Below are positions 2,109-49,474 of a stretch of 50,302 bases of DNA, piece by piece. Under the pieces are notes generated by a model. The model did no database searches, had not been told where the DNA came from, and saw nothing but the letters and a program-made list of their open reading frames with translations. The translations under genes and the position numbers were made by a program. The DNA comes from an uncultured Candidatus Saccharibacteria bacterium (GTDB taxonomy: Bacteria; Patescibacteriota; Minisyncoccia; Phycocordibacterales; SBAW01), in assembly GCA_964566795.1 (NCBI GenBank), contig CAZMIU010000001.1, positions 280,789 to 331,090 of the forward strand, given 5' to 3'. How positions within the stretch are numbered: the stretch's first letter is position 1; the number at the start of each line of letters is the position of its first letter.

Positions 2109-2128
2109 GGGACAAATGTATCACGGAG

Positions 2129-2214
2129 ACGAAAAAGGGCGAAAAAATAGTCTGGCCTGCGAGGGCGTAGCCCGGAGACAGGAGACCCGAGGACTTTTTT
2201 TCGCTCTTTTTCGT
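2129..2214 (+). repeat. Palindromic element family 1, copy A (intergenic, between divergent pth and lepB)
   Basis: Arms ACGAAAAAGGGCGAAAAAATAGTCT (2129-2153) and GGACTTTTTTTCGCTCTTTTTCGT (2191-2214); core AGTCTGGCC...GGAGACCCGAGGACT shared with copies at 16770 and 39422. Confidence 0.88.
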
Positions 2215-2267
2215 TGTAGAGAACGCACAAAGCTTGCATTGTTTAAAAAGAAGCATACAATTGCTGC

Positions 2268-6362: not shown

Positions 6363-6425
6363 GATACAAAAGGCTTGTTTGTCAAAGTTGCCAAGACCAC
6401 TCCGGGCCAGTAGAGTTGTAAGGCT

Positions 6426-7685
6426 ATGGCACAAGTACTTCCTGAAATTGAGGCATTTGCCCGCATTCGCGTGATTGGTGTCGGCGGCTCCGGCAAGAAC
6501 GCAATCAACCACATGGTCGAGGAAAAGGTGCGCGGTGTCGACTTTGTCACCATAAACACCGACGCCCAGGACCTCCACAACTCTCTCGCTAAGAAAAAGA
6601 TCCATATAGGCAAGAACTTAACCCGCGGCCTCGGCGCGGGTATGAACCCGGAGCTCGGCAAGCGCGCCTCCGAGGAAACAAAAGAGGAGATCCAGCAGGC
6701 CATCAAGGGTTCCGACATGGTGTTTATCGCAGGCGGCATGGGCGGTGGCACCGGCACGGGTGCCGCCCCTGTAGTTGCACGCACCGCCAAAGAGATGGGC
6801 GCACTCACCGTGGCTGTGGTCACGAAGCCTTTCGCATTTGAGGGCCAGCAGCGCATGCGCCTGGCCGAGGGCGGCTTAGACGAGCTGCGCAAAGAGGTAG
6901 ACGCGCTGATCGTCATCCCCAACGACCGCATTTTGGCCACGGTAGCCAAAGACACCACACTCAAGCAGGCTTTCGCGATGTGCGACGACGTGCTTAAGCA
7001 GGCTGTAGAGGGCATCTCCGACCTCATCACCAACCCCGGCATCATCAACGTCGACTTTGCCGACGTGCGTGCTGTGATGGAGAACTCGGGCTCTGCACTC
7101 ATGGGCATCGGTATCGCCTCCGGCGAGAACCGGGCCGCGGTCGCTGCCAAGGCCGCCGTATCCTCCCCGCTTCTGGAGCTCTCTATTAACGGCGCCAAAG
7201 GTGTCCTCTTTGCCATTGCCGGCGGAGACGACCTGGGCATGCTCGAGGTGCACGAGGCCGCCAAGATCATTACCGAGTCTGTCGACCAAAACGCCAAGAT
7301 CATCTTTGGCGCCGTCAAGGACGACAAGCTCAAAAAGGGCGAGGTACGCGTGACCGTTATTGCAACCGGCTTCCCCGCTCCTGGCGTGTCTACTCCGGCT
7401 ATCTCGCGCGGCACGCCACTCTTTACCGCCTTTGGCCGCGAAGCGGTTAAGGAAAAGGAGCCCGAGGCCGATGTGCCGCCCCTGGGCACTATAGGCAAGA
7501 TATTTAATGCCCCCACCCCGCCCCCTGCGCGCGAGCGCGACGAGGAGCGCGAGGAAGTACGCGTAGTGCCGCCCTCCTCGGCCCCGGCCCCAACACCCCC
7601 CGAGCCCATCAAGATTAAGATAGACGAAGACGACGATGAGTGGGGCGCAGTGCCGTCATTTCTCCGCAGGCCAAAAATCAAGTAA
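6426..7685 (+). CDS. ftsZ: Cell division protein FtsZ
   Basis: GMGGGTGTG tubulin signature, INVDFADV, C-terminal VPSFLRR; upstream TTGCCA-N17-TAGAGT promoter. Confidence 0.98.
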   Translation: MAQVLPEIEAFARIRVIGVGGSGKNAINHMVEEKVRGVDFVTINTDAQDLHNSLAKKKIHIGKNLTRGLGAGMNPELGKRASEETKEEIQQAIKGSDMVFIAGGMGGGTGTGAAPVVARTAKEMGALTVAVVTKPFAFEGQQRMRLAEGGLDELRKEVDALIVIPNDRILATVAKDTTLKQAFAMCDDVLKQAVEGISDLITNPGIINVDFADVRAVMENSGSALMGIGIASGENRAAVAAKAAVSSPLLELSINGAKGVLFAIAGGDDLGMLEVHEAAKIITESVDQNAKIIFGAVKDDKLKKGEVRVTVIATGFPAPGVSTPAISRGTPLFTAFGREAVKEKEPEADVPPLGTIGKIFNAPTPPPARERDEEREEVRVVPPSSAPAPTPPEPIKIKIDEDDDEWGAVPSFLRRPKIK

Positions 7686-7694
7686 ACTGTAGCA

Positions 7695-8741
7695 ATGTTT
7701 GACCTTGCCATTATAGGCGGTGGCCCCGCTGGTGTCGCTGCGGGGGTATATGCCGCGCGTAAGCGGCTCAAGACCGTCTACATTACGGAGACCTTTGGCG
7801 GGCAATCCACCGACTCACTCGATATCCAAAACTGGATAGGCACGCCGCATATCCCGGGCGTGGAGCTCGCTAAAACCTTTGAGGCGCACCTGCGCGAGTA
7901 TGCGGGAGATGTTGTAGACATCAAAGCTCCGGAGCGGGCTACTAACGTTGAAAAAGGGGCGAATGGCTTTGTAATTACCACAGACAAAGGTTCGTACGAG
8001 GCTAAAACTGTACTCGTAGCCACAGGCGGCGCACGGCGCAAGCTCGAGGTACCGGGCGCGGCACAATACGAAAACAAGGGCATTGTCTACTGCGCCTCCT
8101 GCGACGGCCCGCTCTTTGCGGGCCAGGACACCGTCGTCATTGGCGCAGGCAACGCCGGGTTTGAGACCGCGGCGCAGCTTTTGGCCTATGCCAAGTCGGT
8201 AACACTCCTCAACCGCCGCGATACGTTTGAGAAGGCCGACGCCAAAACCGTAGAGGCGGTTAAGGCGCACCCCCACATGACCATCCTCACCAACACCGAG
8301 CCTGTGGAGGTCAAAGGCGACAAGTTTGTATCGGGCATCGTGGTTAAAAACACACAGACCGGCGAGCAAAAAGAGATTCCTGCGGGTGGTATCTTTGTCG
8401 AGATCGGGGCGCTCCCGGCGACCGGCTTTGTGCAGGGGTTAATTGAGATGGACCAGTTTGGCCATATCAAGGTAGACCCAAGAACACAGCGTGCGTACCC
8501 ACTTACCCAAACTCAAAAAAATGATTCAGATGCAAGGCGTGGGGAAAGTGCAGAGGGAGGCGTACCTCAAGGTACGATGACCGAGGCACAGGGGCCCCAC
8601 AACGCAGCAGATGAGTCGTTTTTTGGAGTTTGGGCTGCGGGCGACTGCACCGACGGCCTATACCACCAAAACAACATCGCTGCGGGCGACGCGGTTAAGG
8701 CGCTGGAGGACATCTACCTCTATATCAAGTCACACGCCTAG
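7695..8741 (+). CDS. trxB: Thioredoxin reductase-like FAD oxidoreductase carrying an in-frame palindromic insertion
   Basis: GGGPAG, CASC redox centre, GAGNAG, GVWAAGD; about 40 extra residues before GVWAAGD. Confidence 0.88.
   Translation: MFDLAIIGGGPAGVAAGVYAARKRLKTVYITETFGGQSTDSLDIQNWIGTPHIPGVELAKTFEAHLREYAGDVVDIKAPERATNVEKGANGFVITTDKGSYEAKTVLVATGGARRKLEVPGAAQYENKGIVYCASCDGPLFAGQDTVVIGAGNAGFETAAQLLAYAKSVTLLNRRDTFEKADAKTVEAVKAHPHMTILTNTEPVEVKGDKFVSGIVVKNTQTGEQKEIPAGGIFVEIGALPATGFVQGLIEMDQFGHIKVDPRTQRAYPLTQTQKNDSDARRGESAEGGVPQGTMTEAQGPHNAADESFFGVWAAGDCTDGLYHQNNIAAGDAVKALEDIYLYIKSHA
8506..8634 (+). repeat. Palindromic element family 2, in-frame in trxB (129 bp = 43 codons)
   Basis: 23-nt arms CCCAAACTCAAAAAAATGATTCA and TGAGTCGTTTTTTGGAGTTTGGG; inner stems GCGTGGGG/CCCCACAACGC, GTGC/GCAC and CGTACC-TCAA-GGTACG. 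Confidence 0.85.
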
Positions 8742-10828: not shown

Positions 10829-11542
10829 CTAAATCTTTTCTATCGTGGTAGCCCACAAGACGCCGTCTATGTCGTAGCTTGTGGTGGACTCGGCCGGGTG
10901 TATGACGCCAGAGACGCGCAGCTTGGTCCCCGTCGGATAGTCGACCGGATAGGTCGACATGAGCGCAGTGTTTATTGCCAGGTGCCCGTCGCTCTGGTCT
11001 AGGGCAATGCCAAACGCGCACTCAGCGGTGTGCGGGCCGTCCCCTTTTTTAGGCAGACACTCCCAGTAGCCCACCACGCTCACGCGCTCGGGCTGCACTG
11101 CGCTCTGCGCACTGCCCTCCATGCGCAGCGATGCGCCCGTGCGGTCGGTACGGTACACGTACTCGCGACCCTTGGCGCGCATCTCGACCCTAAAGCCCTC
11201 TACCAGGGCCGCCAGGCATGACTCCGCCGGGCCGCCAAGCCCGAGGCATCCGTCAGGCCAAGTCCTGTCCTCCACGAGCATGATGGTGATCTCATTTGCC
11301 GTGATGCCGAGCTTGGCAGCCAGGTCGGCGCGCGCCGCCGCAGCGGCGGGCTCGGGCTCCATGCCGTGTATGCCGCCGCTGCCCGGCGCCACGCCGTCGG
11401 CCGATGTAACCGGCACCTGTGTTTGGTTGGTAGTATCCTGTGGAGATGGCGCGGCTCCGGGCCCCTTGCCCGCATACGCCCAGTACCCCGCCCCCGCGAG
11501 CACAACAATAGCAAGCACAACAAACGCTGTTTTGGTGTTCAT
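10829..11542 (-). CDS. Hypothetical membrane-anchored surface protein with WPDGCLG...C motif
   Basis: N-terminal anchor, Pro/Ala linker and two Cys pairs; TACAAT-N6-ATG leaderless start. Confidence 0.8.
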   Translation of the reverse strand: MNTKTAFVVLAIVVLAGAGYWAYAGKGPGAAPSPQDTTNQTQVPVTSADGVAPGSGGIHGMEPEPAAAAARADLAAKLGITANEITIMLVEDRTWPDGCLGLGGPAESCLAALVEGFRVEMRAKGREYVYRTDRTGASLRMEGSAQSAVQPERVSVVGYWECLPKKGDGPHTAECAFGIALDQSDGHLAINTALMSTYPVDYPTGTKLRVSGVIHPAESTTSYDIDGVLWATTIEKI

Positions 11543-13878: not shown

Positions 13879-13950
13879 TGACCCTACCGGGAATCGAACC
13901 CGGATTGACGGCTTGAAAAGCCGGTGTCCTAACCGTTAGACGATAGGGCC
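13879..13950 (-). tRNA. tRNA-Glu(TTC)
   Basis: Cloverleaf GGCCCTA...TT-TTC-AA...GGTTCGATTCC...TAGGGTCA; CCA not encoded. Confidence 0.95.
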
Positions 13951-14004
13951 TCTTATTTCCCCTATGCAAAGAATACCCCCAAAGGGGTACTTTTGCATTG
14001 GGTG

Positions 14005-14091
14005 CGGAGAGGGAGAGATTCGAACTCTCGGTGAGGTTGCCCCCACGCCACATTTCGAGTGTGGTGCCTTCGACCACTCAGCCACCTCTCC
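14005..14091 (-). tRNA. tRNA-Ser(CGA)
   Basis: Long variable arm; anticodon arm CCACA-CT-CGA-AA-TGTGG. Confidence 0.95.
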
Positions 14092-14163
14092 GTGACCCAC
14101 AAAATAACACTTTTTGAGCCTATTTGCTACACTTGGGGTCATTAGCCGTTTACCCAAACACCT

Positions 14164-14586
14164 ATGAACAGCGTTGTACATTTTGAGATGGGCTATCACG
14201 ACCGCGAGAGGATAAAGAAGTTCTACACAGACGCGTTTGGTTGGAGCATGCAGCAGATGGGGGCTGAGATGGGCAATTATGTGGTGGCGCACACTGCACA
14301 GACCGATGCAAACGGCATGATACAAAAGCCGGGCGCCATAAACGGCGGCTTTTACCAGAAGGAGGGTCCCGACTCCGAGGCGCCGTCGGTTGTTATCGCA
14401 GTCGATGATATCCATGCCTCGATGAAGGCCGTCGAGGCCGCGGGTGGCAAGATTCTGGGCGGTATGCAGCAAGACGGCACTCACACCATGGAGCCAACCA
14501 TGATACCGGGCGTGGGGCTTTGGATATCCATCAAAGACACCGAGGGCAACCGCGTGAGCATGCTGCAGCCAAACCCACGAAACTAG
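14164..14586 (+). CDS. VOC family glyoxalase-like protein
   Basis: VVHFEM...FYTDAFGW, INGGF, IPGVG...DTEGNRVSMLQ. Confidence 0.9.
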   Translation: MNSVVHFEMGYHDRERIKKFYTDAFGWSMQQMGAEMGNYVVAHTAQTDANGMIQKPGAINGGFYQKEGPDSEAPSVVIAVDDIHASMKAVEAAGGKILGGMQQDGTHTMEPTMIPGVGLWISIKDTEGNRVSMLQPNPRN

Positions 14587-14588
14587 TC

Positions 14589-14664
14589 TGGTGCGCGGTA
14601 TAGGACTTGAACCTATGACCCTCCCCACGTCAAGGGGATGCTCTACCAACTGAGCTAACCGCGC
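14589..14664 (-). tRNA. tRNA-Val(GAC)
   Basis: Cloverleaf with TCCCC-TT-GAC-GT-GGGGA and encoded CCA. Confidence 0.95.
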
Positions 14665-14806: not shown

Positions 14807-16015
14807 TCACAGGTACTCCTCAAGGAACGCTACCACAGAGCCCGGCGGAGTCATCCCCGGGTAGCGTTCGTCGCCAATGATGATGCGGTTGGGCTTCTTA
14901 TAGTACGCGGCCGAGAGGTTAAAGGTATAGACCCCCTTCTCCCCCGTACTGCGCAGCCTGTCTTGCGGCCGCTTGTCGCTCGACCACAAAAAGTCCAGAG
15001 ACTCACTCCCAAAGTGCGGCAGCCGCTCCAGAATATACGGAGCAACGCGCGAGCGTGTCGCCAGGAGGAAGGTCACTTCTGCATCACCCCCGCCGTAGAG
15101 CCCGGCACGCAGGTCGGTCAGCGTGTCGCCGGCGTAAAAGAGCCTCAGATCGCGGGTATGGAGGGCCGCGGCCTTTGCGGTACGGCCCACCAGCCAGTTG
15201 ATCATCCGCTCTTTTTCCGCGCCCCACGGTATCAGGTAGAGCGTGTACCGGCTTTTTGCCGGGTCCACCCGGTTTGGATGGCTCTCATCAACAGTCTTAA
15301 CACGCTGCAGGAGCCGGTTGCCCTGCACAGCCTGATCCTCAAGAATCTGCATGAGCTTTTGCATACGCAAGAGCCCATCCACACCCTCAAAGTTAAACTG
15401 CACACGGTAGCGCAAAGGTGCCACGTCGGTAACACCTTTGTAGTAGTTGGAGCCGTACTCAATCGGCGAGAGATAGTGGTGGAACTCCGGGTACACCTGC
15501 ACCATCGCGGCAAGCACCGCATCGCGCCATCGGTTGGGGCTGCCCTCTTTCATCTCTCCGGCAATGTAGTCGTAATTGAGGAAGGTGTCGTACTCCCAGT
15601 CAGTCATGTAGCCATGGCCGTTTCGCATGATGATGCCGCTGCCAAACCCGGCAGAGACATCACGGTCGAGCGAGTGCTTAAAAAACGGCACCTGCGCCGG
15701 GTCTACATACACATGCAGGCCATGTTTATCCCTGCCCCACCTGGGCGGAGGTTCGCTGTAGCCGTGCGCCTGTACGGAAGCAAGACGCATCTTTTCAGAG
15801 AGCATCAGCCCCAGTGTGCGTGCCGACACACTGCCGGTCGCAACACCTTTTCGTATCTGTAGCTCCTCCGCCCTGCGACGGTCTTCAATCTCCTCCTCAG
15901 AGTCAACCTCGCTGCTGTTTACGGTATTGGTGCCATCCTGGTCGGTCAGCACCATGGTCTTGGTCTCCCTCAACTTCTGTGCTGCTACAGACTTAGCGTA
16001 AGGATCTCCCCGCAT
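14807..16015 (-). CDS. HAD-superfamily hydrolase, subclass IIB (sucrose-phosphate-phosphatase-like)
   Basis: Motif I DQDGT, motif III Lys (PWGAEKERM), motif IV GDTLTD; AGGGG SD; TGA stop. Confidence 0.72.
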   Translation of the reverse strand: MRGDPYAKSVAAQKLRETKTMVLTDQDGTNTVNSSEVDSEEEIEDRRRAEELQIRKGVATGSVSARTLGLMLSEKMRLASVQAHGYSEPPPRWGRDKHGLHVYVDPAQVPFFKHSLDRDVSAGFGSGIIMRNGHGYMTDWEYDTFLNYDYIAGEMKEGSPNRWRDAVLAAMVQVYPEFHHYLSPIEYGSNYYKGVTDVAPLRYRVQFNFEGVDGLLRMQKLMQILEDQAVQGNRLLQRVKTVDESHPNRVDPAKSRYTLYLIPWGAEKERMINWLVGRTAKAAALHTRDLRLFYAGDTLTDLRAGLYGGGDAEVTFLLATRSRVAPYILERLPHFGSESLDFLWSSDKRPQDRLRSTGEKGVYTFNLSAAYYKKPNRIIIGDERYPGMTPPGSVVAFLEEYL

Positions 16016-16160: not shown

Positions 16161-17291
16161 ATGAAAGTGCTCGCCATAGAGACCTCCTGCGACGAAACAG
16201 GCATCGCACTCCTTGAGGGCCGCCACAGTGGCGAGACAATGGAGTTTGTGACACTCAAGGCCGAGCTCCTGAGCCAGGCCAAACTCCACGCCCCGTTTGG
16301 AGGCGTCTTCCCCGCGCTCGCCAAGCGCGAGCACACCAAAAACTTGCCGGTGTTGTTTGAGCCGTTTAAAGATGACCAGTTTGACGCCGTAGTTGTGACA
16401 GCCGGACCCGGACTCGAGCCTGCGCTCTGGACAGGCATCGAGTTTGCCAAACAGGTCGCGAGCGAGCGCGGCGTGCCGGTGCTGCCGGTAAACCACATGG
16501 AGGGGCACATTATCTCCTCTCTTGCAGAACGACACCCTGACAAACTTGAGAATGTCGGGATGTCAGTAATTAAAGACGTGCAGTTTCCGGTGCTTGCTCT
16601 GCTAATTTCTGGCGGGCACACGGAGTTAGTACTTACGAAGGATTGGTTTGAGTACGAGATGCTCGGCCGCACGCTCGACGACGCCGTGGGCGAGGCGTTT
16701 GACAAAGTGGCGAGGATGCTCGAGTTGCCCTACCCCGGCGGCCCGGAGATTTCCAAACTTGCATCAAAAAGCCGGGCAGAAAAAGCTACGGGCAAAAGTC
16801 TGGCCGAATCAAATGAGGAGACCCGAGGACTTTTGAACGGAGGTTTTTCTGCCCGGCTCCCGCGCCCCATGCTCAATACCAACTCGTGTGACATGTCTTT
16901 TTCCGGTTTAAAAACAGCTGCACTGTACGCACTAAAAGACAAAAATCTGGCTGCAGAGGAAAAAGCTGCGTTTGCCGCGGAGTTTGAGGATGCCGTGGCC
17001 GAGGTGTTGTGTGCCAAGGTGCGCCGCGCCCTTAATGAAAGCGGCGCCAAGACATTTGTCATTGGCGGCGGTGTGGCGGCCAACCGCTACATCCGCGAGG
17101 AGCTGCAAAAGATAATTCTCGAGGAGTTCTCCGATGTCGAGTTCAGGCTCCCCCACCTCTCCATCACCGGCGACAACGCAGTCATGATAGGCGAGGCCGC
17201 GCTCGCCCGCCTCCTCTTGGGGCACCAGACCCTCGATTCCGCAAGGTTCGACCTTGCGGTAGAGGCCCGCGGCAACCTTTCTTTGGCTTAA
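16161..17291 (+). CDS. tsaD: tRNA N6-threonylcarbamoyladenosine transferase TsaD carrying an in-frame palindromic insertion
   Basis: IETSCDET, HMEGH, SGGHT, DDAVGEAFDK, SFSGLKT, TGDNAVMIG. Confidence 0.96.
   Translation: MKVLAIETSCDETGIALLEGRHSGETMEFVTLKAELLSQAKLHAPFGGVFPALAKREHTKNLPVLFEPFKDDQFDAVVVTAGPGLEPALWTGIEFAKQVASERGVPVLPVNHMEGHIISSLAERHPDKLENVGMSVIKDVQFPVLALLISGGHTELVLTKDWFEYEMLGRTLDDAVGEAFDKVARMLELPYPGGPEISKLASKSRAEKATGKSLAESNEETRGLLNGGFSARLPRPMLNTNSCDMSFSGLKTAALYALKDKNLAAEEKAAFAAEFEDAVAEVLCAKVRRALNESGAKTFVIGGGVAANRYIREELQKIILEEFSDVEFRLPHLSITGDNAVMIGEAALARLLLGHQTLDSARFDLAVEARGNLSLA
16770..16858 (+). repeat. Palindromic element family 1, copy B (in-frame in tsaD)
   Basis: 18-nt arms AGCCGGGCAGAAAAAGCT and AGGTTTTTCTGCCCGGCT; core AGTCTGGCC (16797-16805) and GGAGACCCGAGGACT (16817-16831). 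Confidence 0.9.
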
Positions 17292-20661: not shown

Positions 20662-20734
20662 TGCTTGGGGCCAGGATCGAACTGGCGACATCTTCCTCTT
20701 CAGGGAAGCGCTCTACCAACTGAGCTACCCAAGC
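20662..20734 (-). tRNA. tRNA-Phe(GAA)
   Basis: CTTCC-CT-GAA-GA-GGAAG anticodon arm and standard D and T arms. Confidence 0.95.
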
Positions 20735-20774
20735 GATGAGGTCAGTTTAGCAAAATATGAGCTTTTAAGCCACC

Positions 20775-21068
20775 CTACCGCGGCGCAGTGCTCGAGCCAA
20801 AATACTGCCCAAAAAAGCCCTGCACCTGGCCCTGGAAGTCCTGCGCCGAGCCGTACACAGCTATAATCTGCTCTACATAGGGCTGCACGTAGTTAAAGTA
20901 CGTGTACACCGACACGCCTACCACGAGCGCCCACCACAACAGCGTAAAAAACGTATGCACGCGCTGGCTGCGGCGCAGGCTGTGCACCACGCGGTTGGTG
21001 TCCGCGTTGAGCTGCGCCTGGCGCTTAACAAGCTCCTTGAGCTCGTCCATATCAAGGTCGTTTTCCAT
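20775..21068 (-). CDS. Hypothetical single-TM protein
   Basis: TACAAT-N6-ATG start; coiled N-terminus plus TM helix. Confidence 0.78.
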   Translation of the reverse strand: MENDLDMDELKELVKRQAQLNADTNRVVHSLRRSQRVHTFFTLLWWALVVGVSVYTYFNYVQPYVEQIIAVYGSAQDFQGQVQGFFGQYFGSSTAPR

Positions 21069-21106
21069 ACCTTAATTGTACCATCGGTCACACGCCGGCT
21101 TTTCTC

Positions 21107-21178
21107 TGCCCCCACCAGGAATCGAACCCAGATCTTTTCCTTAGGACGGAATTGCTCTATCCATTGAGCTATGGGGGC
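21107..21178 (-). tRNA. tRNA-Arg(CCT)
   Basis: GCCCCCA acceptor; anticodon loop GT-CCT-AA; GGTTCGATTCC. Confidence 0.9.
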
Positions 21179-21235
21179 TAATGAAAACGACCCCAAAGGG
21201 ATCGCTTTGAGTATGCTATAAATTGTCCTTCTAGA

Positions 21236-21478
21236 CTAGGCCTCGATCCCGAGCTTTGCCGCTATCTTAGCGCGGTCAAAGCCCACCATCATCTCATCAC
21301 CAATGACGATGACAGGGACGCCGAGCTGCCCCGTAAGTTCTATCATCTCTGCCCTCTTTGCGGCGTCTGTCGAGACGTCGTAGCCTGTGTACTCTACCCC
21401 CTTCTCGGCAAAAAAGTCTTTGGCCATCTGGCAGAAGTGGCAGGTCGGAGTGCTGTATATGGTCACTGGTTTTTGCAT
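21236..21478 (-). CDS. Glutaredoxin family protein (YruB/NrdH-like)
   Basis: CHFC active site, GVPVI, VGFD. Confidence 0.93.
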   Translation of the reverse strand: MQKPVTIYSTPTCHFCQMAKDFFAEKGVEYTGYDVSTDAAKRAEMIELTGQLGVPVIVIGDEMMVGFDRAKIAAKLGIEA

Positions 21479-21515
21479 AGGTTCTCTTTTATTGGTAGAT
21501 TTCTGTAAGTATATC

Positions 21516-21589
21516 GCGGGATTAGTTTAGTGGCAAAACATGTGCTTCCCAAGCATAGGACGCGAGTTCGATTCTCGCATCCCGCACCA
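21516..21589 (+). tRNA. tRNA-Gly(CCC)
   Basis: TGTGC-TT-CCC-AA-GCATA; encoded CCA. Confidence 0.95.
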
Positions 21590-28020: not shown

Positions 28021-28137
28021 GACTATATATGCTTAAGAAACGCACAATGCGCTCCCCTGTTAATACGAACCTCCTTAAGTATAGACCCCTCCTGGGACTA
28101 TGGCCCGTATCCTGGGGATATGCTATGCTACACATTA

Positions 28138-28428
28138 GCGCGTTAGGCAATAGCTCCGACGCCCCTTCCGGGGGTGCGGGGAGGAAAGTCCGGGCATCTA
28201 CCGAGCAATCGGTTAAAAAGGTAGCAGGTAACCCCTGCCATTTGCTCCTGCGGGCAAAAGAGGTGCGAACAGAGACGAGCCTCGGTCGAAAGACCGAGGG
28301 TGAAACGGCTAAATCCTTATCCAGATGCAAGGCCGTGCCGTGGCAACACGGAGTGCCGCTCGAGCCCCACGGCGACGTGGGGCCCAGATAAATTATTGTC
28401 CACGACAGAACCCGGCTTACAGACGCGC
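28138..28428 (+). ncRNA. rnpB: RNase P RNA (compact, about 290 nt)
   Basis: GAGGAAAGTCCGGGC (28181) and ACAGAACCCGGCTTAC conserved regions; P1 GCGCGTT/GACGCGC; terminator at 28437-28471. Confidence 0.95.
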
Positions 28429-28469
28429 GCGCAGATGCAAAAGCCCCCGGTAAACCGGGGGCTTTCGCT

Positions 28470-29375: not shown

Positions 29376-29460
29376 CGGAGGCGGTGAGATTCGAACTCAC
29401 GGTGGGTTGCCCCACGCCACGTTTCCAACGTGGTGCACTAGACCACTATGCGACGCCTCC
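29376..29460 (-). tRNA. tRNA-Ser(GGA)
   Basis: CCACG-TT-GGA-AA-CGTGG and a long variable arm. Confidence 0.95.
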
Positions 29461-30870: not shown

Positions 30871-31380
30871 CTAGGCGACAATCTTCTTCAAGCGTTCCTC
30901 AACCATCTCTATTTCGTGGTCTATGCCCTGTATAAACTCGTAGTTTTTAAGCTCGCTGGCTTTAATCCACGCATACTCCGTGGCGTCCTCGTCGAGCCTA
31001 ATGTCGCCCGACTCATATTTGCAATAAAAGCTGAGGACCACGCACGGTACGCCGTCCGGGCGTATAAATGTAACGTCTAAAAGATATTGCACCTCAGAGA
31101 CCTCCACACCCACCTCCTCCCGTATCTCGCGGCGCAAGGTGTTTTCCACGGCGCCATACCACTGGGGGCTCTCGGTGTTGGCATAGGTGGCCTCGCTCTC
31201 TATATAGTCTTTTGTCTCGAGCCCGCCGCCCGGCACGGTCCATTTGTTGGGCCAGGCCTTTTTGGTGGGCGCGCGCTTGGTCGCGAGGTAGCGGTACTCT
31301 CCGGCCTCGTCCTTTTTCCAGATAATACCCGTAACGGCAATCCGATGGAGCTCGGTCTGCGTTGGCACAGGCGCAGCCAT
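30871..31380 (-). CDS. NUDIX hydrolase
   Basis: WTVPGGGLE...TLRREIREEVGV Nudix box with an insertion. Confidence 0.9.
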   Translation of the reverse strand: MAAPVPTQTELHRIAVTGIIWKKDEAGEYRYLATKRAPTKKAWPNKWTVPGGGLETKDYIESEATYANTESPQWYGAVENTLRREIREEVGVEVSEVQYLLDVTFIRPDGVPCVVLSFYCKYESGDIRLDEDATEYAWIKASELKNYEFIQGIDHEIEMVEERLKKIVA

Positions 31381-31383
31381 GGG

Positions 31384-31944
31384 CTAGAAGGAGACCTTAA
31401 CCGGCTCTCTTGCCGCCGCCTGGTCCTCTGCAAGCTCAAAGTACTCGCGCGGCTCAAAGCGGAACATGGAGGCAATAACATTGCCCGGGAACGACTCAAT
31501 GGAGGTGTTGAGGTCGCGTACGTTGGTATTGTAAAAGCGGCGCGACGCCTGGATCTTGTTCTCGGTGTCGCTAAGCTCGCGCTGGAGCTCGGCGAAGTTC
31601 TCGTTGGCTTTAAGGTCCGGGTAGGCCTCTGCAACCGCAAAGAGCGACTTAAGCGCGCCGGTGAGCATGTTCTCGGCCTCACCCTTGGCCTCGACACCCC
31701 CGGCATCCATGGCACGTGCGCGTGCCGCGGTTACGTTCTCAAACGCCTCGCGCTCGTGGGTGGCATAGCCCTTAACCGTCTCGACAAGGTTGGGGATAAG
31801 GTCGTACCGGCGTTTAAGCTGCACATCTATGTCTGCCCACGCCTCGCGGGCACGCTGCACAAGGCGCACAAAGCGGTTGTACGCGGCGATAACCCACACC
31901 ACGATAAGTGCCAGAACCCCCAATACGATGTATCCGGCTGTCAT
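31384..31944 (-). CDS. lemA: LemA family protein
   Basis: WADIDVQLKRRYDLIPNLV, EAYPDLKAN, RRFYN. Confidence 0.96.
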   Translation of the reverse strand: MTAGYIVLGVLALIVVWVIAAYNRFVRLVQRAREAWADIDVQLKRRYDLIPNLVETVKGYATHEREAFENVTAARARAMDAGGVEAKGEAENMLTGALKSLFAVAEAYPDLKANENFAELQRELSDTENKIQASRRFYNTNVRDLNTSIESFPGNVIASMFRFEPREYFELAEDQAAAREPVKVSF

Positions 31945-32038
31945 GCCACAATTGTAGCAGGTCTATGGGGATTGCAAGGGGTCATAGGGGATGCTAGGGT
32001 TCTTTCAGACAACCTCCCAAAAAAGAAAGGAGTCCAGC

Positions 32039-32467
32039 ATGGCAGAGGGGAAGATGCCAGAAGACGACCTGTGGCGTCAGGAGTACCAACAAGGCGCAAG
32101 CGGGCGCGTCACGCGTGCAGTTTTGGCAGACGGCCGCAACTACGACCCCAACAATCCCAGCGACAATAGCGCAAGGCTCTATCCGCTGAGAACATTGGTG
32201 GTACTGCATACCCCGACACCAAACGGCGAGGGTTCAGAGTACCGCGTTGGCGTGGTAGCACGCAGCGACATGGAGAGGGGGCTGCGTTCTTTTGACGGAG
32301 TCAGGCTCAACCGGCACGTGGTCGAGCGGTGCTTTACAGAAGGCATCTACAACAACGACATTGAGGCAAGGGCGCTCGCAGAGAGTATAAGCATGGTGCG
32401 ACAGCCCGAGGGGGGCATTAAGGTACTCCACTGCCTCGAACCGTTCCCTGGCACATGGGACGACTAA
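32039..32467 (+). CDS. Hypothetical protein (ORFan cassette)
   Basis: AAGGAG SD before ATG 32039 (MAEGK); terminator 32482-32512. Confidence 0.72.
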   Translation: MAEGKMPEDDLWRQEYQQGASGRVTRAVLADGRNYDPNNPSDNSARLYPLRTLVVLHTPTPNGEGSEYRVGVVARSDMERGLRSFDGVRLNRHVVERCFTEGIYNNDIEARALAESISMVRQPEGGIKVLHCLEPFPGTWDD

Positions 32468-37152: not shown

Positions 37153-39024
37153 ATGCCAGAAGAGAAAAAGCAACAGTCAGGCGCAGGCGGCCATCGCTCG
37201 CGCGGAGGCCGCACACGAGGGTTTGGTGGCCGCACAGGCCGCTCGCGCGGCCGTTTGCGCCAGGGCGGCCCCAAGCCGCACCAGGCACACCCGGTGCGCC
37301 CGGACATAGACACAAAAGTTAATCCGGATGAAAAGCCGGTCCCGCCGCTTGCCCCGGGCAACATCCGCATTATCCCGCTTGGAGGCGTAGAGGAAATAGG
37401 CCGCAACATGACCATGGTCGAGTTTGGCGACGACATTATCGCCATCGACTGCGGCTTCCAGTTTAGAGAGCAGGACACCCCGGGTGTGGACTACATTTTG
37501 CCCAACACCAAGTACATGGAGGAGCGCCGCGATCGCGTGCGCGGGCTCTTTATCACGCACGGCCACCTCGACCATATTGGCGGCATCCCCTACGTTATAG
37601 ACCGCATCGGCTACCCGCCCGTCTACACGCGCGCACTTACTGCCGTTATGATCCGCAAACGCCAGGAAGAGTTCCCCAACCTCAAGCCTTTGGACATCAA
37701 GGAGGTAGAGAAGGCCGACACCGTAACCGTGGGCAAGCTCAAGGTCCGGTTCTTTAGCGTGACCCACACCATCCCCGACGCCATGGGCGTCATTGTCGAG
37801 ACCCCGTACGGCGACCTTGTGTTTACAGGCGACCTCAAGGTCGACCACAACGACGGTGTCCCCACCCCCGAGGAGGAAAAGGAGTTTGCCTACTTTAAGG
37901 ACCGTAAAGTGCTCTTTTTGGCAGCCGACAGCACAAACTGCGAGCGCGCCGGCTTCTCTATCCCCGAGCGCGTGGTTACCAAAACGATGGACGACATTAT
38001 CGCAACCACGCCGGGCCGCCTTATTATTGGCACCTTCTCATCCCAGCTCGAGCGCCTTATGCGCATCATCGAGCAGGCCGAGCGCGTGGGCCGCAAGATA
38101 TTGGTTGAGGGCCGCTCGATGAAGGTCAACATCGAGATAGTAAAGCATCTGGGCCTCCTCAAGGTCTCCGACAAGACCTTTATCGACTCCGCCCAGCTTG
38201 AAAACTTCCCCGACCCTAAAGTCTTGGTACTTGCTACAGGCGCACAGGGCGACGAGTTTGCCGCGCTCATGCGCATCGCGATGAAGACGCACAAGTACGT
38301 CAAGATGAAAAAGGGCGACACGGTCGTGCTTTCCTCATCGGTCGTGCCGGGCAACGAGAGAAGCGTGCAGAAGCTCAAGGACAACCTCTCGCGCCAGGGC
38401 GCGCGCATCATCCACCGCGAGCAGATGGATGTGCATGCCTCCGGCCACGCCAACCGCGACGAGACCTTCTGGATCCACCAAAAGATCAATCCGCGCTTCT
38501 TTATGCCCATGCACGGCTACCACTACATGCTGCGCGTACACGCAGATATCGCCAAGGCCTGCGGCCGCCAGGAGGACGAGATTATTGTCCCGGACAACGG
38601 CGCCATACTCGAGATCAGAGACGAGGGGCAGAAAATTGTCCGTCTCAAGGAGTCGGCTCCCAATAGCCTAAGGCTCGTAGACGGCTTTGCTATCGGCGAC
38701 ATCCAGGAGGTTGTGATACGCGACCGCACCGTGCTCGCTCAAGAGGGCATGTTTGTCATCATCGCCACGGTGAACCCCAAGACTGGCAAGTTGCGCAAAT
38801 CGCCCGACATCATCTCGCGCGGCTTTGTCTACCTCAGAGAGTCTCAGGATCTCCTGAACCAGGCACGCATCCTGGTCAAGAAATCCATCGAGGACGCGGC
38901 CAAGGGTCAGCAGCCGGTCAACTTTGACTTTGTCAAAAACCAGGTCACCGACAACCTCGCCCGCTTCCTGTTTGAGAAGACCAACAAGCGCCCGATAGTG
39001 ATCCCGGTAGTCCTAGGCGTCTAG
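37153..39024 (+). CDS. rnj: Ribonuclease J with an RG-rich N-terminal extension
   Basis: PLGGVEEIGRNM, THGHLDHIG, HASGH, PMHG. Confidence 0.95.
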   Translation: MPEEKKQQSGAGGHRSRGGRTRGFGGRTGRSRGRLRQGGPKPHQAHPVRPDIDTKVNPDEKPVPPLAPGNIRIIPLGGVEEIGRNMTMVEFGDDIIAIDCGFQFREQDTPGVDYILPNTKYMEERRDRVRGLFITHGHLDHIGGIPYVIDRIGYPPVYTRALTAVMIRKRQEEFPNLKPLDIKEVEKADTVTVGKLKVRFFSVTHTIPDAMGVIVETPYGDLVFTGDLKVDHNDGVPTPEEEKEFAYFKDRKVLFLAADSTNCERAGFSIPERVVTKTMDDIIATTPGRLIIGTFSSQLERLMRIIEQAERVGRKILVEGRSMKVNIEIVKHLGLLKVSDKTFIDSAQLENFPDPKVLVLATGAQGDEFAALMRIAMKTHKYVKMKKGDTVVLSSSVVPGNERSVQKLKDNLSRQGARIIHREQMDVHASGHANRDETFWIHQKINPRFFMPMHGYHYMLRVHADIAKACGRQEDEIIVPDNGAILEIRDEGQKIVRLKESAPNSLRLVDGFAIGDIQEVVIRDRTVLAQEGMFVIIATVNPKTGKLRKSPDIISRGFVYLRESQDLLNQARILVKKSIEDAAKGQQPVNFDFVKNQVTDNLARFLFEKTNKRPIVIPVVLGV

Positions 39025-39813
39025 CGTCCTGCGTATTTCTCTCTCGCTTGCTCCGCGCTCCAAAAGGGCGCGGAGTTTGTTTGCGCGCTTTTGGCGGGTG
39101 CTGCCCTCAAACTTACTTTGTTTGGCGTAGTGCTTGCTTTTTTGGTTAAGCCGCACACCCTGGCGCTTGAGGTGCGAGCCGTAGTCCATAAGCGCCGCAT
39201 AAAAGTCCCTGGGCTGCATCTTAGACTTCTTTAGAGCCTGCTCAACAAGGGGCAAAAGCTCCCTGTCGCTTATACTAGTGTTTTGCAAAACACCAGAATA
39301 GATATGATGAAAGAAAACGGTGCGGATGTTTGTTTCTATAAACACCGTAGGCTCGTTAAAGGCAAATGCCTGGACTGCCGCAACAGTATATGGCCCAACA
39401 CCAGGGAGCTTTGCCCGCGAAGCGGAAACTTTCTGGAAAAATAGTCTGGCCCGCAAGCGCTCCGAGCGCGAGACGGGAGACCCGAGGACTTTTTTCTGGG
39501 AAGTTTCCGTGGAGAGTATCTTTCCTGTCTCCCACAGGTACTTGCCGCGGCGGTTGTAGCCCAGACCCTGCCAGGCTTTTAGCACGCGCGAGAGCGGTGC
39601 CATCGCAAGCACCCTAGGGGTCGGAAATAGTTTAAGCCAGCGCTCGTAGTACGGAATTACCCTCTCTACTTGGGTCTGCTGCAGCATCACCTCGCTCACC
39701 AAAATGCGGTACGGGTCGCGCGTGTGGCGCCAGGGCAAATGCCTGCGGGCGCTTGTCTTGTAGTGCTTTTTGAGCGCCGCTACAAGCTCCAAAATAGCCT
39801 TGTCGTGGCTCAT
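39013..39813 (-). CDS. mutY: MutY-like A/G-specific adenine glycosylase without the 4Fe-4S Cys motif, carrying an in-frame palindromic insertion
   Basis: LPWR, VSEVMLQQT, WQGLGYNRR, LPGVGPYT, ALMDYGS with no following Cys cluster. Confidence 0.85.
   Translation of the reverse strand: MSHDKAILELVAALKKHYKTSARRHLPWRHTRDPYRILVSEVMLQQTQVERVIPYYERWLKLFPTPRVLAMAPLSRVLKAWQGLGYNRRGKYLWETGKILSTETSQKKVLGSPVSRSERLRARLFFQKVSASRAKLPGVGPYTVAAVQAFAFNEPTVFIETNIRTVFFHHIYSGVLQNTSISDRELLPLVEQALKKSKMQPRDFYAALMDYGSHLKRQGVRLNQKSKHYAKQSKFEGSTRQKRANKLRALLERGASEREIRRTLDA
39422..39510 (+). repeat. Palindromic element family 1, copy C (in-frame and antisense in mutY)
   Basis: Arms GCGGAAACTTTCTGGAAAAATAGTCT and GGACTTTTTTCTGGGAAGTTTCCGT; core at 39443-39451 and 39476-39490. 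Confidence 0.9.
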
Positions 39814-42798: not shown

Positions 42799-44340
42799 CT
42801 AGTCGGCGGGCTCTATCAACCCCAGTTTAATTAAACGGGCGTGTATCGAGCCGCGCTGGCGGCCAAACTCTTTGACCAGTGCGGCTACGCCTGTGCCCTC
42901 CTCAAACATGGTTGTGAGTTTGTCGTCGTCGTCTTGTGTCCAAGGCCTGTAGGCGTTGGGGTGTTTTTGGCGCAGTTTGTCGAGCTTCGACATCTCAACC
43001 TCTGGCTTAGGTTTGTTTGGGTCGGGTTCGTGCCCGCCGGATGCTTTAGTAAACTGCTTGTGCATGTCCTCAATCTCCTCGGGCGGCAGTTTGCCAAATA
43101 TCTCCTCCGCGCTCATCGAGGCCGCGCGAAACGCCTGGTCTCGCGCCAAAATGTCCGGGTGCACAGCCAGAGCGCGCTCGTTAATGCCAAGCAGGTAGAG
43201 CCCGCTTAGGTTGCGCACACGGCTTAAAGCCACATAGCCCTGCCCATACTCAAACGCGTCCGATAAGTCCATCACCGCGGCATCAAGACTCATCCCCTGG
43301 CTCTTGTGCACCGTAATAGCCCACGCCAGGCGCAGCGGCACCTGCGTTATCTGTGCCAACACGCGGTTGCCGTCGGCCACCTGCCAGGTGTCTGGCTCGG
43401 CCTCTATAACCTTGCCGGCACGGGTTGCCACCTTGGGCCAACCGGCGTCGCTCCAGCCCACCACCGTGCCGAGTGTGCCGTTAACGTATCCGTGCTCAAA
43501 GTTGTTGCGCGTAAACATCACCGTCGCGCCCTCTTTTAAAGAAAGCGTCCCGGGCGATAAGCATCCGCGCTTAAGCGCTTCCACCAGAGTGGTAGAGCCC
43601 GATGAGCGCATGTGGTATACCTTGAGCGCGTTCTCTATGCGCGACAGCGCCTCCTCGTTTATACGGTCTACGTCCTCGTTGTGGGTATAAAGTCTGGTGG
43701 CGTCCTCGGGGAGCTCGCCCACTTCGTGCCGCGTCTTGAGCAGTTCGCGATGCTCATCCTCAAGCTCGCCTTGGCGCATCGCACCCAATAGCCCCAAGAA
43801 CATGCCGTCGTCCTGGCGGTGCTGCTCGTGTAAGTAGCACGTAAGCGGGTTGGCGTCCTCCCACGCGCCTGACTCAAAGGCAAATTTGGTTGGCCCCTCA
43901 CGCGACACCGGCGGTAATTGAAAGAAGTCGCCCACAAAGACAACCTGCAGCCCGCCAAAGGGCTTGTCGCTACCGCGCAGGGTGGTAAGTGCGCGGTCTA
44001 CCAGTGTTAAGAGGTTGGCATCGAGCATAGACACCTCGTCAATGATAAGCACCTGGGCCGCGCGCACACGCCGCACCAGAGGCTCGCGCTCCATAAGCGC
44101 CTCAAGCTCCCAGTCGCTGAGTGACTTTTTAATCCCCACACCGCTCCAGGCGTGTATGGTCATACCGCCCACGTGTGTGGCGGCAATACCTGTAGAGGCG
44201 GTAATAGCGGGCTCTATGCCGCGTTCGCGCAGCCACGCCACATAGCGGTTAATAACGTAGGTCTTGCCTGCGCCCGGCTCGCCTGTAAGGAATACGTTGG
44301 CTCCGGTCTTGAGTATTGTCAGTGCCTGCTCCTGTGTCAT
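42799..44340 (-). CDS. Pif1-family 5'-3' helicase with a small C-terminal helical domain
   Basis: GEPGAGKT, DEVSM, GDFFQLPPV, ITVHKSQGMS, YVALSRV; C-terminal AYRPWTQDDDDKL...I..RL.KLG. Confidence 0.92.
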   Translation of the reverse strand: MTQEQALTILKTGANVFLTGEPGAGKTYVINRYVAWLRERGIEPAITASTGIAATHVGGMTIHAWSGVGIKKSLSDWELEALMEREPLVRRVRAAQVLIIDEVSMLDANLLTLVDRALTTLRGSDKPFGGLQVVFVGDFFQLPPVSREGPTKFAFESGAWEDANPLTCYLHEQHRQDDGMFLGLLGAMRQGELEDEHRELLKTRHEVGELPEDATRLYTHNEDVDRINEEALSRIENALKVYHMRSSGSTTLVEALKRGCLSPGTLSLKEGATVMFTRNNFEHGYVNGTLGTVVGWSDAGWPKVATRAGKVIEAEPDTWQVADGNRVLAQITQVPLRLAWAITVHKSQGMSLDAAVMDLSDAFEYGQGYVALSRVRNLSGLYLLGINERALAVHPDILARDQAFRAASMSAEEIFGKLPPEEIEDMHKQFTKASGGHEPDPNKPKPEVEMSKLDKLRQKHPNAYRPWTQDDDDKLTTMFEEGTGVAALVKEFGRQRGSIHARLIKLGLIEPAD

Positions 44341-44523: not shown

Positions 44524-44910
44524 CTATTTCTCTCCTTCTCCGAAGTCCAAACAGACGGAGTTTAGGCAGTAGCGCTGGCCGGTTGTGGTGGGACCATCGT
44601 CAAAGACGTGGCCCAAGTGGCTGCCACACTGCGCACACACCACCTCGGTGCGGCTCATGCCGTGGCTATTGTCTGCAATCTCTTTAGTAGCGCCAGGCAG
44701 GGCCTGGTCAAAGCTCGGCCACCCTGTGCCCGAGTCAAACTTGGCATTACTGCTAAACAGCGGGTTGCCACACGCGGCGCACTTAAACATGCCGTCTCTG
44801 TCCTCGTGCAATAGCTTGCCCGAGAAGGGGGCCTCGGTCCCCTTCTCGCGCAGCACTTTGTATTGCTCAGGAGTCAGCTTCTCCTTCCACTGTTGTTCGT
44901 TATTAGGCAT
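44524..44910 (-). CDS. msrB: Peptide methionine (R)-sulfoxide reductase
   Basis: [36 protein letters not shown]. Confidence 0.97.
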
Positions 44911-44947
44911 TGTTCTGGTTGTTACTTGTACTTGTTGTACCTGTTTG

Positions 44948-45619
44948 CTAGTCCCACTCTTCAGTAGGGACAGCGCTAATATCCTCGGCGTCGGCCACTG
45001 CGGCCGGGATTACGCACAACACGCGCCCCGCAATTTTAAAGTCCTCGCGCAACACTATCGGCTTGTATTTAGGGTCTTTGTTCTCCGGGTAGAGGATGGT
45101 GACTCCCTCGCGGCGCTCCAGTCGCTTTACCGTCACCATGTCGCCCACTATCGCCGCCACCCTGTCGCCGCTCCTCACGTTGTCCGTAAACTGCACCAAA
45201 ATGTAGTCGCCGCTGTTAATCCCGGCGTCGAGCATACTGTCGCCCACAGCGCGCACAGCTACAATGTTGCCGTCCTCGCCCGCAATGTTTTTGTCTACCT
45301 GTAAAAACTCGTCGTACTGCTCTTGCGCGTACACAGACAGATCGTCACACCCCACATTGGCCACCACCGGCACCGAGACAAGCGTCTCGGAGCGGCCAAA
45401 CGCGTCTATGGGGCGCAGCTCTATGTTGCGGCGCGCATAGCGGCGGCGCACCACATAGCCCTTGCGCTCAAGGATGTCTAAGTACTGCACCACCGTGCGT
45501 ATAGACTTAAACCCCAGGTTTTTACGCAGCTCATCTAGAGTGGGCGGCTCGCCCTTGGCCTCTAGGTACAGGGAGATGTTCTCCAAAACACGCTTCTGCT
45601 TGCCGGTGAGTGTGCTCAT
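44948..45619 (-). CDS. lexA: LexA-like repressor (wHTH plus S24 peptidase)
   Basis: LT.KQKRVL..I...PPTLDEL, L..LERKGY, GDSM (Ser), VTVKRL (Lys). Confidence 0.88.
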
Positions 45620-48442: not shown

Positions 48443-49474
48443 CTAAGATCTAAGAAAAAGTCCAAAAACTGTCTCTCTGTGCCATTTTAATGAGATTAGA
48501 TTAGGCCGAGATCGAGAATCTTGTGGCAGAAAAACCGGCTTTCCTTCTAATTCTTTAAGATACTCCACATGCATGGCTTGAGGGTGTACTTTTATTCTAT
48601 AATCGTCGGTAACAGTAAAAAAACCTTTGTCAAAGGCCCAATGTAAATTTCTTTCAAAAGCTATCCCGTTGGAAGGGTGTGGCCCTCCTCCAAATGCACG
48701 AGCTTGTAGGTGTGCTGCCTCAAGATTAAAAAAGTCTTTATAATTAATTAAGAGTTTCTTCCCAGTTACAGCGCATTTGTATTCGTAGTAATGCAATATT
48801 AAGTCCCTAAAAGATCTGCTTCTCAATACTCTGGTTTCCACCGATTTATCCTCCTCCAATATAACTGATTGGGAAACAGGCTCCTTTAATGCAAATTCAA
48901 GAACTTCATTAGGTATAACTTTCTTGCCTACTTCTTTTATACGTCTAAGTCCATCGAGAAATGCTAATTTGGAAAGTGGAACTAGCGCGTGGCTCTTTTT
49001 TGGACCAACTGCAATCTCCTGAAGTATCGAATCAAGGTTGCCATATTCTCGCGATCCAGGAATATACCGCAATGTTTTATAAAAAATGTTTACTAATTCT
49101 TTAGTTTCCGGCTCAAGCACACGTAATTTTACAATTACAACAATATCGTTAGGTTTGAAAAAATTTGCACCCGGATCGATCTCCCCATTTAGATAAAGCC
49201 TATATTCATCCCTATTTTCCCCATCAGGTCCTGTAGCATATTTACTGTTATGGTATACATACCTCGAAGAAACAGTCTCATCTGAATTTACTGAAAAAAT
49301 ATCGAGCAGAACATGATCGTTTAGAGCAACCTTACTTAACGGAGGGAAGAAGTTAATTGCCTTCTTTGAAATTAGAAAATACCTCCCCCCTCCTCCTGGA
49401 CGACCTTTCCTAAACCCCAACTCTTGAGGCTGCAGTCTCCTTATATAAGCTAACTCGTCGAATTCATACTCCAT
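48443..49474 (-). CDS. HNH endonuclease (putative restriction enzyme)
   Basis: YEYKCAVTG...LEAAHL...NGIAF..NLHWAFDKG; AT-rich DNA; overlaps the methyltransferase gene. Confidence 0.88.
   Translation of the reverse strand: MEYEFDELAYIRRLQPQELGFRKGRPGGGGRYFLISKKAINFFPPLSKVALNDHVLLDIFSVNSDETVSSRYVYHNSKYATGPDGENRDEYRLYLNGEIDPGANFFKPNDIVVIVKLRVLEPETKELVNIFYKTLRYIPGSREYGNLDSILQEIAVGPKKSHALVPLSKLAFLDGLRRIKEVGKKVIPNEVLEFALKEPVSQSVILEEDKSVETRVLRSRSFRDLILHYYEYKCAVTGKKLLINYKDFFNLEAAHLQARAFGGGPHPSNGIAFERNLHWAFDKGFFTVTDDYRIKVHPQAMHVEYLKELEGKPVFLPQDSRSRPNLISLKWHRETVFGLFLRS

Follow-up and report, generated by a model that had tools for sequence, protein, structure and literature searches.

A multicopy hairpin element of Patescibacteria lies in frame and antisense within a predicted clusterless MutYX-type adenine DNA glycosylase gene

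Palindromic elements inserted in frame in protein-coding genes were described in Rickettsia by Ogata et al. (2000, 2002) and are reviewed as Rickettsia palindromic elements (RPEs) in PMC10969869. The other described system that bears on the present locus is MutYX, a clusterless adenine glycosylase known from the Eggerthella enzyme (8UUC), in which Glu134 replaces the catalytic Asp and the recognition of 8-oxoG falls to Gln201 and Arg209, two residues of a new C-terminal domain (PMC12631127). Here we analysed a stretch of 50,302 nucleotides of Patescibacteria (CPR) DNA, hereafter the window, where a copy of a palindromic element, which we call family 1, is found in a gene of the MutYX type. The features of the window that are relevant to this analysis are collected in Table 1.

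Table 1. Positions of the family-1 copies, their parts and the associated genes in the window
Feature	Position	Strand	Basis or remark
Whole hairpin element, family-1 copy in mutYX	39422..39510	+ (antisense to host gene)	Fold, covariance model, translation
Outer stem, 5' arm CGGAAACTTTCTGGAAAAAT	39422..39442	+	
Apex: core AGTCTGGCC, variable inner hairpin CGCAAGCGCTCCGAGCGCGAGACGG, core GAGACCCGAGGACTTTT	39443..39493	+	
Outer stem, 3' arm TTCTGGGAAGTTTCCG	39494..39510	+	
Host gene, predicted clusterless MutYX-type adenine DNA glycosylase, 266 aa	39013..39813	-	Pfam HhH-GPD, 8UUC match
Second family-1 copy, in frame, sense, inside tsaD	16773..16858	+	Encodes ...RAEKATGKSLAESNEETRGLLNGGFSA...
Host gene tsaD, 376 aa counted from the ATG	16161..17291	+	Pfam TsaD 5.5e-66; orthologs
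Third family-1 copy, intergenic	2124..2222	+	Between divergent pth and lepB
pth	1578-2108	-	
lepB	2268-2825	+	

The element in mutYX is an 89-nt imperfect hairpin contained in frame and antisense within an uninterrupted gene. An antisense, in-frame family-1 element adjoining the helix-hairpin-helix had been proposed in the earlier note from the letters of the DNA, and the limits given there coincided exactly with the base of a long + strand hairpin. When folded as RNA, this strand had a minimum free energy of -47 kcal/mol (z = -4.15), a stability reached by 0 of 200 dinucleotide shuffles, and a weaker fold was obtained for the minus strand (z = -1.84). The covariance model of the family matched this copy at 39418-39517 with 76.8 bits (E 9e-19). 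The host protein contains ...GKYLWETGKILSTETSQKKVLGSPVSRSERLRARLFFQKVSASRAKLPGVG... and ...GYNRRGKYLWETGKILSTETSQKKVLGSPVSRSERLRARLFFQKVSASRAKLPGVGPYT...; residues ~102-130 (TETSQKKVLGSPVSRSERLRARLFFQKVSA) are the ones encoded by the element, which amounts to about 27 extra residues. The distance of 42 residues between KYL and LPGVG that the earlier note had counted was found again, as compared with 24 residues in 8UUC, the closest solved structure, 23 in an ortholog of canonical length (P0025) and only 15 in the nearest insert-free orthologs (...ILSKDGWGGKLPGVG...), the loop before LPGVG being expanded by the element.

The best solved relative of the host protein was 8UUC (phmmer E 1.2e-53, with an alignment spanning residues 23-266 of the window protein), which was also the top Foldseek match to the AlphaFold model (TM 0.72, 42% identity), and the NCBIfam mutY models matched the protein with scores under the equivalog cut-off. 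The mean pLDDT of the AlphaFold model was 87.8, with values >90 in the core against 61-76 in the insert, which was modelled as a low-confidence protrusion on a confident core, lengthening one helix and then adding a loop and a second helix. Two peculiarities of the enzyme that had been noticed before, the missing 4Fe-4S Cys motif and the presence of ETN in place of DGN, were both verified, because the 266-aa protein has no cysteine at all and E160-T161-N162, which stands for the D-G-N of MutY, is invariant among 41 aligned orthologs. Residues E41, E160, Q232 and R240 align to Glu33, Glu134, Gln201 and Arg209 of 8UUC, respectively, and they are invariant or nearly so in the 41 orthologs.

The absence of Cys ligands, the change of the catalytic Asp to Glu (ETN), the Gln/Arg pair for 8-oxoG recognition and the C-terminal 'X' domain motif KHYxKQSKFEGSxRQKR are all common to MutYX (8UUC) and the window protein. 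As a known clusterless MutYX subgroup has both of the first two, these are traits of the family and not signs of decay. Unlike the Eggerthella MutYX, the window protein has some 27 residues encoded by the element ahead of LPGVG, and it comes from Patescibacteria, a group absent from the main text of PMC12631127 according to a term search. Outside the insert, dN/dS against three orthologs was 0.06-0.14 with dS of 1-2, and this strong purifying selection, together with the conservation of the key residues, ruled out that the host is a decaying pseudogene, which the earlier note had named as something that would refute its reading. By alignment and structural model, the host is presumably a functional clusterless MutYX-type glycosylase with predicted adenine glycosylase activity, and the recently defined MutYX family would now reach into CPR bacteria.

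Besides the copy in mutYX, the window contains two more copies, one of them in the sense direction inside tsaD, as had been anticipated, and the other one intergenic. Covariance-model scores for the three were 76.8, 72.9 and 63.8 bits (E ~1e-18 to 4e-15), and no fourth copy was detected by the same search in the 50-kb window. Common to all three is AGTCTGGCC ... GGAGACCCGAGGACTTTT around a variable inner hairpin. The peptide encoded by the tsaD copy falls between the invariant R205 and LPRPM, and translation of the two genic copies bore out that the element is free of stops in the tsaD sense frame as well as in the mutY antisense frame.

An exact-pattern scan with AGTCTGGCC-N(4-34)-GAGACCCGAGGACTTTT of one genome per prokaryotic species yielded 75 loci, every one of them in an assembly titled as belonging to the Patescibacteria/CPR group. 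The lineages included Adler-, Kaiser-, Nomura-, Zambryski- and Paceibacteria, among others, and the maximum number of exact-pattern copies in one assembly was 7. A few diverged copies, e.g. GGAGAACCGAGGAC and GGAGACCCAAGGAC, were recovered by the covariance model; since only exact matches to the pattern were collected, the core of this set is invariant partly by construction. At the element, a whole-window scan gave no Rfam match at gathering score, and the best results of a permissive Rfam scan were miRNA models with E values of 0.4-0.6.

The length of the element was about 85-105 nt. RNAalifold proposed the pairings AGUCU:GGACU, GG:CC and CC:GG for the apex, which is asymmetric and has two fixed bulges, GA and AGAC, both on the 3' strand, and the first pair of the inner hairpin covaries (U-A, C-G or G.A). 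Beyond the apex there is an A-tract on one side and a T-tract on the other, followed by an outer stem of ~17-22 bp. Information content peaks at the apex and not at the ends of the element, with positional information dropping off at ~-24 and +22 from the core and only a loose purine-rich / AAA ... TTT pattern past these points. The identity of arms between copies was near background (0.43-0.57), yet the arms of each copy are complementary, because its own 3' arm was the best partner of the 5' arm in 85% of 79 copies and the arm-pairing score was 8.9 within a copy as against -1.2 +/- 3.0 between copies. Covariation was in excess of that in shuffles, as the double changes in a fixed register amounted to 398 versus 209 +/- 13 and 0 of 500 shuffles reached 398, subject to the caveats of the tool. 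Counting outer-stem pairs in the fixed register gave 72% at the true register and 66% at a slide of -1; this counting underestimates pairing because of indels, and the arms were therefore aligned for each copy. A possible origin of the arms by copying from nearby host DNA, in direct or inverted orientation within +/-300 nt, was discarded (9.56 versus 9.36 of 14 matches).

Some copies fall into subfamilies, which occur within and across assemblies. L031, L067 and L072, all from one assembly, have common arms and inner hairpins, and another subfamily is defined by its GAAGGAGAAAG..GCCGAGAAAAT arms; given that arms are shared in these subfamilies, it is the whole unit, arms included, that gets copied. 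Counting against the explanation that we favour below, six copies of one assembly showed 90% identity in the inner hairpin and 46% in the arms. The motif GRAG, in the sense orientation of the element, was enriched at both flanks (42% and 30%, with a background of 9%), and no enrichment of its reverse complement was seen at the copy flanks. Apart from this motif, no target-site duplications were found, the longest common flank word averaging 4.41 within copies and 4.10 in controls. The family is multicopy, structured and apparently mobile, with arms that are locus-specific yet complementary.

Comparison of orthologous genes showed that the loop before LPGVG of MutYX exists in several states, which are canonical (…SSAEDPGQLSTDFLESLPGVG), short (…ILSKDGWGGKLPGVG), filled with family-1 copies in the antisense frame (KKVLGSP…RARLF, KKSSGLP…, DKSPR…), filled with copies in the sense frame (NSLARKRS.RETGDPRTF, KKSGLA…) and, in some orthologs, occupied by other hairpin families. 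The same range of states, including insert-free orthologs, was present in the R205-LPRPM loop of TsaD. A filled and an empty MutYX (P0004 and P0013) were 91% identical outside the insert, and antisense, sense and empty alleles of TsaD were 92-94% identical to one another. That such close alleles differ by being filled, empty or flipped means that gain, loss or replacement has been recent and recurrent at both loops.

At the DNA level, the flanks of filled and empty alleles were 90-97% identical up to sharp junctions, between which the native loop was exchanged for an element with its own arms. These flanks did not support an import by homologous recombination with long flanking segments. In the comparison of a filled with an empty mutYX (L083 and L084), both arms were new and ~11 nt of the native loop had been replaced, which ruled out that one of the arms is native host sequence. 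Close relatives have had the same native loop replaced independently, and such a site preference exceeds what random transposition followed by selection predicts. A simple inversion in place may also underlie the opposite orientations; palindromic arms look alike either way, and the arms differed between the genomes that were compared.

The apex and the A/T tracts of the mutYX copy were identical over 59/59 nt to those of a copy in the orthologous gene at L078, which has the opposite orientation and different arms, in a gene whose dS with respect to the window gene is about 1.5. Such an identity, at this dS and in the opposite orientation, is not what vertical descent of neutral DNA would give, and it suggests either a strong constraint at the nucleotide level or a recent re-insertion or conversion of the apex.

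Residence in genes is the rule in this family. Sixty-one of the 80 non-redundant copies (76%) were inside an uninterrupted ORF that had 150 codons or more and extended across the entire element, and random 90-nt segments of the same loci fell in such ORFs in 83% of cases; the family is barely depleted from genes. The 61 genic copies were found in both orientations (34 antisense and 27 sense) and in all frames, and each one that was examined kept the frame and left the host frame without stops. Clear Pfam domains were recognised in 26 of 30 scanned host ORFs, most of which are core informational or cell-envelope genes, among them ArgRS, a class-I synthetase, PolA, DnaE, HolB (three genomes), GatA (two), RecJ (two), RecG (two), UvrD, ParB (two), LepA, Def, Dus, MnmA (two copies in one gene), a Mur ligase and RseP. 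As for the other 19 copies, most occupy short gaps between genes, in several cases where two genes converge, and no clearly split gene was found among these 19. The element thus resides in frame in functional genes in both orientations and, since frame and absence of stops are kept, it would be translated as extra residues.

The explanation that we consider probable is that the element is a translated mobile hairpin, similar in kind to the RPEs, which has spread through Patescibacteria. It would be a short, non-autonomous, hairpin-forming mobile DNA, a copy of which may have entered or replaced the surface loop before the helix-hairpin-helix of MutYX. Most likely, the bulged apex is what an enzyme provided in trans recognises on folded, single-stranded nucleic acid; for the outer arms pairing would suffice, and copies in coding regions would persist, in either orientation, where a loop tolerates them. 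Both the mobility as a whole unit and the recognition of the apex by an enzyme are what we infer from these features. With low confidence, the mobilising enzyme may be of the HUH/Y1 type or a similar hairpin-binding transposase, in view of the anatomy of the element and of the hairpin-recognising HUH/Y1 systems (REP-RAYT, IS200/IS605), which are the closest mechanistic models. Among the 20 window ORFs scanned there was no gene for a transposase, Y1/HUH protein, RAYT or TnpA, but only a Pif1-like helicase and an ORF with an HNH domain, far from the copies.

We also considered the possibility that the element is a domesticated nucleic-acid signal which the cell maintains at the nucleotide level and whose genic copies act on the host mRNAs. 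Such a signal could be bound by a protein, terminate or attenuate transcription in both directions, or stabilise the mRNA as a hairpin. The apex is conserved far beyond synonymous sites, as seen in the 59/59 nt at dS about 1.5, and its bulges are fixed; the apex hairpin is preceded by an A-tract and followed by 4-7 T, and several intergenic copies (L007, L047 and L056) exactly occupy the gap between convergent gene ends. However, the invariance of the apex is in part a consequence of the exact pattern, diverged cores exist, and the presence of the element varies in close relatives, so that no single site is required. As a terminator, the T-tract 3' of the apex would fit and some copies are indeed placed between convergent genes, but a simple terminator scan did not call the element, most copies are intragenic, and the intergenic copy of the window is flanked by the starts of two divergent genes, where a terminator would be out of place. 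Rfam did not offer a match to a known signal either, its best being E 0.4 to miRNA models. On balance this alternative is unlikely.

A particular form of it, to which we also give a low probability, is that the apex is more than selfish DNA, being a functional nucleic-acid module conserved as nucleotides in the coding sequence of essential genes, where the hairpin would be long-lived and the apex could be inverted or overwritten without leaving it. Such a module might bind a protein specific to CPR, or it might terminate or attenuate transcription in response to translation and, if this were true, it would explain the 59-nt identity in opposite orientations as well as the repeated use of the same loops.

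The earlier note had further suggested that being open on both strands could be an evolved trait of the element, so that selection would have made it stop-free on both strands and able to colonise genes either way. In its favour, the two core blocks were stop-free in all six frames, but 14% of the composition-matched shuffles of the core were equally open. Genes do host both orientations and all frames, and open frames numbered 4.02 in the genic copies versus 2.84 in dinucleotide shuffles, whose replicate means were 2.60-3.15. In contrast, the intergenic copies, with 2.26 open frames against 1.79 in shuffles (replicate means 1.26-2.42), showed no excess. Furthermore, the genic excess was mainly located in the mirror frame on the other strand, which was open in 78% of copies as compared with 55-58% for the remaining frames, as would follow if selection maintains a single open frame in a palindromic sequence. 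In about half of the copies the AAAT|AGTC junction creates a TAG, which again speaks against selection for openness. The G+C content was 55% in genic and 48% in intergenic copies. The openness seems to be largely a by-product of survivorship in the host frame, palindromic symmetry and a composition in which the core is rich in G+C and poor in stops; an adaptive contribution may exist but is not needed. Selection for dual coding as such is quite doubtful, and the trait proposed in the earlier note was not supported as a property of the element.

It is very improbable that the element escapes translation, either by intron-like removal from the mRNA or by ribosome bypassing. Stable hairpins within coding sequences do characterise known bypass or intervening elements, such as those of T4 gene 60 and the mitochondrial 'byps', and intervening sequences occur in CPR rRNAs. 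Nevertheless, 61 of 80 copies are in uninterrupted ORFs and none of the genic copies examined shifts the frame or brings in a stop, a constraint that would be needless if the segment were removed or skipped. Finally, it has a practically negligible probability that the segment is an ordinary lineage-specific loop which selection on the protein has shaped, or that it arose as an artefact of assembly: the length of the loop before the helix-hairpin-helix does vary in HhH-GPD enzymes, but the multicopy distribution refutes both, as the same nucleotide sequence is present in unrelated genes, intergenic DNA, both strands and several frames, the peptides change with the frame while the DNA stays conserved, and dozens of independent assemblies carry it.

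If the translated mobile hairpin is the right reading, in-frame translated palindromes, which have been treated as near-unique to Rickettsia, are now found in CPR/Patescibacteria at large scale. A literature search of incomplete coverage returned no prior description of intragenic palindromic or MITE-like elements in CPR/Patescibacteria. The family could explain some of the unexplained insertions and length variation of CPR proteins, and it is a warning to annotators and structure predictors that such segments may be derived from repeats. With its conserved bulged apex and its matched filled and empty alleles, it also provides a tractable system for the movement of hairpin DNA and for the tolerance of proteins to insertions of random peptides.

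Among known systems, MITEs (Correia, ERIC, BOX/RUP/SPRITE) are, like the CPR element, small, non-autonomous, multicopy and able to fold into hairpins; they are occasionally intragenic, with in-frame fusions, and SPRITE-like elements mimic terminators. MITEs need conserved terminal inverted repeats and target-site duplications, whereas the termini of the CPR element are its least conserved part, and it fails the definition because its terminal repeats are not conserved and it has no duplication. With REP/BIME-RAYT and IS200/IS605 it has in common a unit that is a bulged imperfect hairpin, the lack of target-site duplications and the lack of classical terminal inverted repeats. A REP-like asymmetric flanking motif would be GRAG, which is found in only 30-42% of copies against 9% in the background. 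REPs are extragenic by definition, measure 20-40 nt and have a GTAG/CTAC head; the CPR element, being intragenic and longer, is not a REP.

The closest resemblance is to the RPEs as they are summarised in PMC10969869. Both are short palindromic repeats of reduced genomes, found also in intergenic DNA; both lie in frame in unrelated housekeeping genes, where they add extra surface segments (for the CPR element, presumably), and neither has a known mobilising enzyme. The CPR family is a multicopy palindrome, with three copies in 50 kb, a fold of z -4.15 and up to 7 copies per assembly, and its insertions in mutYX and tsaD are in frame and have insert-free orthologs. It differs in size (85-105 nt against about 100-150 bp for RPEs) and in phylum, which is Patescibacteria, and it uses both orientations and all frames, whereas an RPE family has one conserved peptide. 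Unlike the RPEs, the CPR element is conserved in an asymmetric bulged apex, with locus-specific arms, and the same loop has been filled repeatedly in close relatives of its hosts. The CPR family is likened to the RPEs by phenomenon, as an analogy and not as membership.

A second repeat-derived peptide, (E)MNTTPTP, was found in other genomes at both hot-spot loops, namely in the loop preceding LPGVG of the clusterless adenine DNA glycosylase MutYX (orthologs P0005, P0032, P0076, P0100 and P0120) and in the loop between R205 and LPRPM of TsaD (orthologs P0137 and P0204). The N-terminus of the MutYX orthologs P0005, P0009 and P0017 was itself this peptide (MNTTPTPSKTK...), suggesting that (E)MNTTPTP is the product of another element family, which may even provide start codons. 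The TsaD gene of ortholog P0173 (locus L086) carried, about 150 nt downstream of its family-1 hairpin element, an additional in-frame insertion of 66 nt, which was missing from a relative 94% identical (L085). This insertion contained inverted repeats of its own (…AAGGTCAGACCTT…AAGGACTGACCTT…AAGGACAGTCCTT) and probably represents a further hairpin family. At least four more recurrent insert types were observed among the orthologs in the TsaD hot-spot loop (GLRSATGARTE..KKFEYPEK, KGKSWPSGPERPE, SPTHLGSSQRE and SGSRRG). Many families of elements thus seem to use this position as a general landing site.

Six family-1 copies in assembly CAINNF (L004, L005, L039, L059, L070 and L071) had nearly identical inner hairpins (90% identity), whereas their outer arms were only 46% identical, which corresponds to background identity; from this comparison it looks as if the apex alone had been homogenised or had recently spread. 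Pairs of family-1 copies in opposite orientation inside one gene were seen at two loci, L041 and L072, the members being adjacent in the former and approximately 400 nt apart in the latter. At L019 and L043, a His_Phos_1 (histidine-phosphatase) domain match occurred in the same stop-to-stop frame as tRNA-synt_1 of a class-I aminoacyl-tRNA synthetase, which could reflect either an unusual fusion or a neighbouring gene sharing the frame.

Five large ORFs of the window (237-575 aa) had no Pfam matches at E <1e-5. The RNase J and mutYX genes are convergent and overlap by 12 nt in the window, and therefore a strong terminator-like hairpin is located within the 3'-end of mutYX.

Coordinates of features in the window and of paired family-1 copies at other loci
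Feature	Sequence	Coordinates	Strand	Remark
RNase J gene	window	37153-39024	+	
mutYX	window	39013-39813	-	266 aa
Terminator-like hairpin	window	39050-39076		
RNase P RNA, bacterial class A	window	28135-28435		108.9 bits, barely over gathering score (100 bits)
tRNA genes (n=7)	window	13879-14664; 20662-21586; 29376-29460		
Large ORF	window	6044-7771	-	
Large ORF	window	10829-11542	-	
Large ORF	window	14807-16015	-	
Large ORF	window	31087-32169	+	
Large ORF	window	44585-45304	+	
Pif1-like helicase	window	42799-44340	-	
HNH-domain ORF	window	48443-49474	-	
Family-1 pair	L041	3502-3582; 3598-3693	-; +	Mur ligase gene
Family-1 pair	L072	6218-6304; 6705-6791	+; -	mnmA
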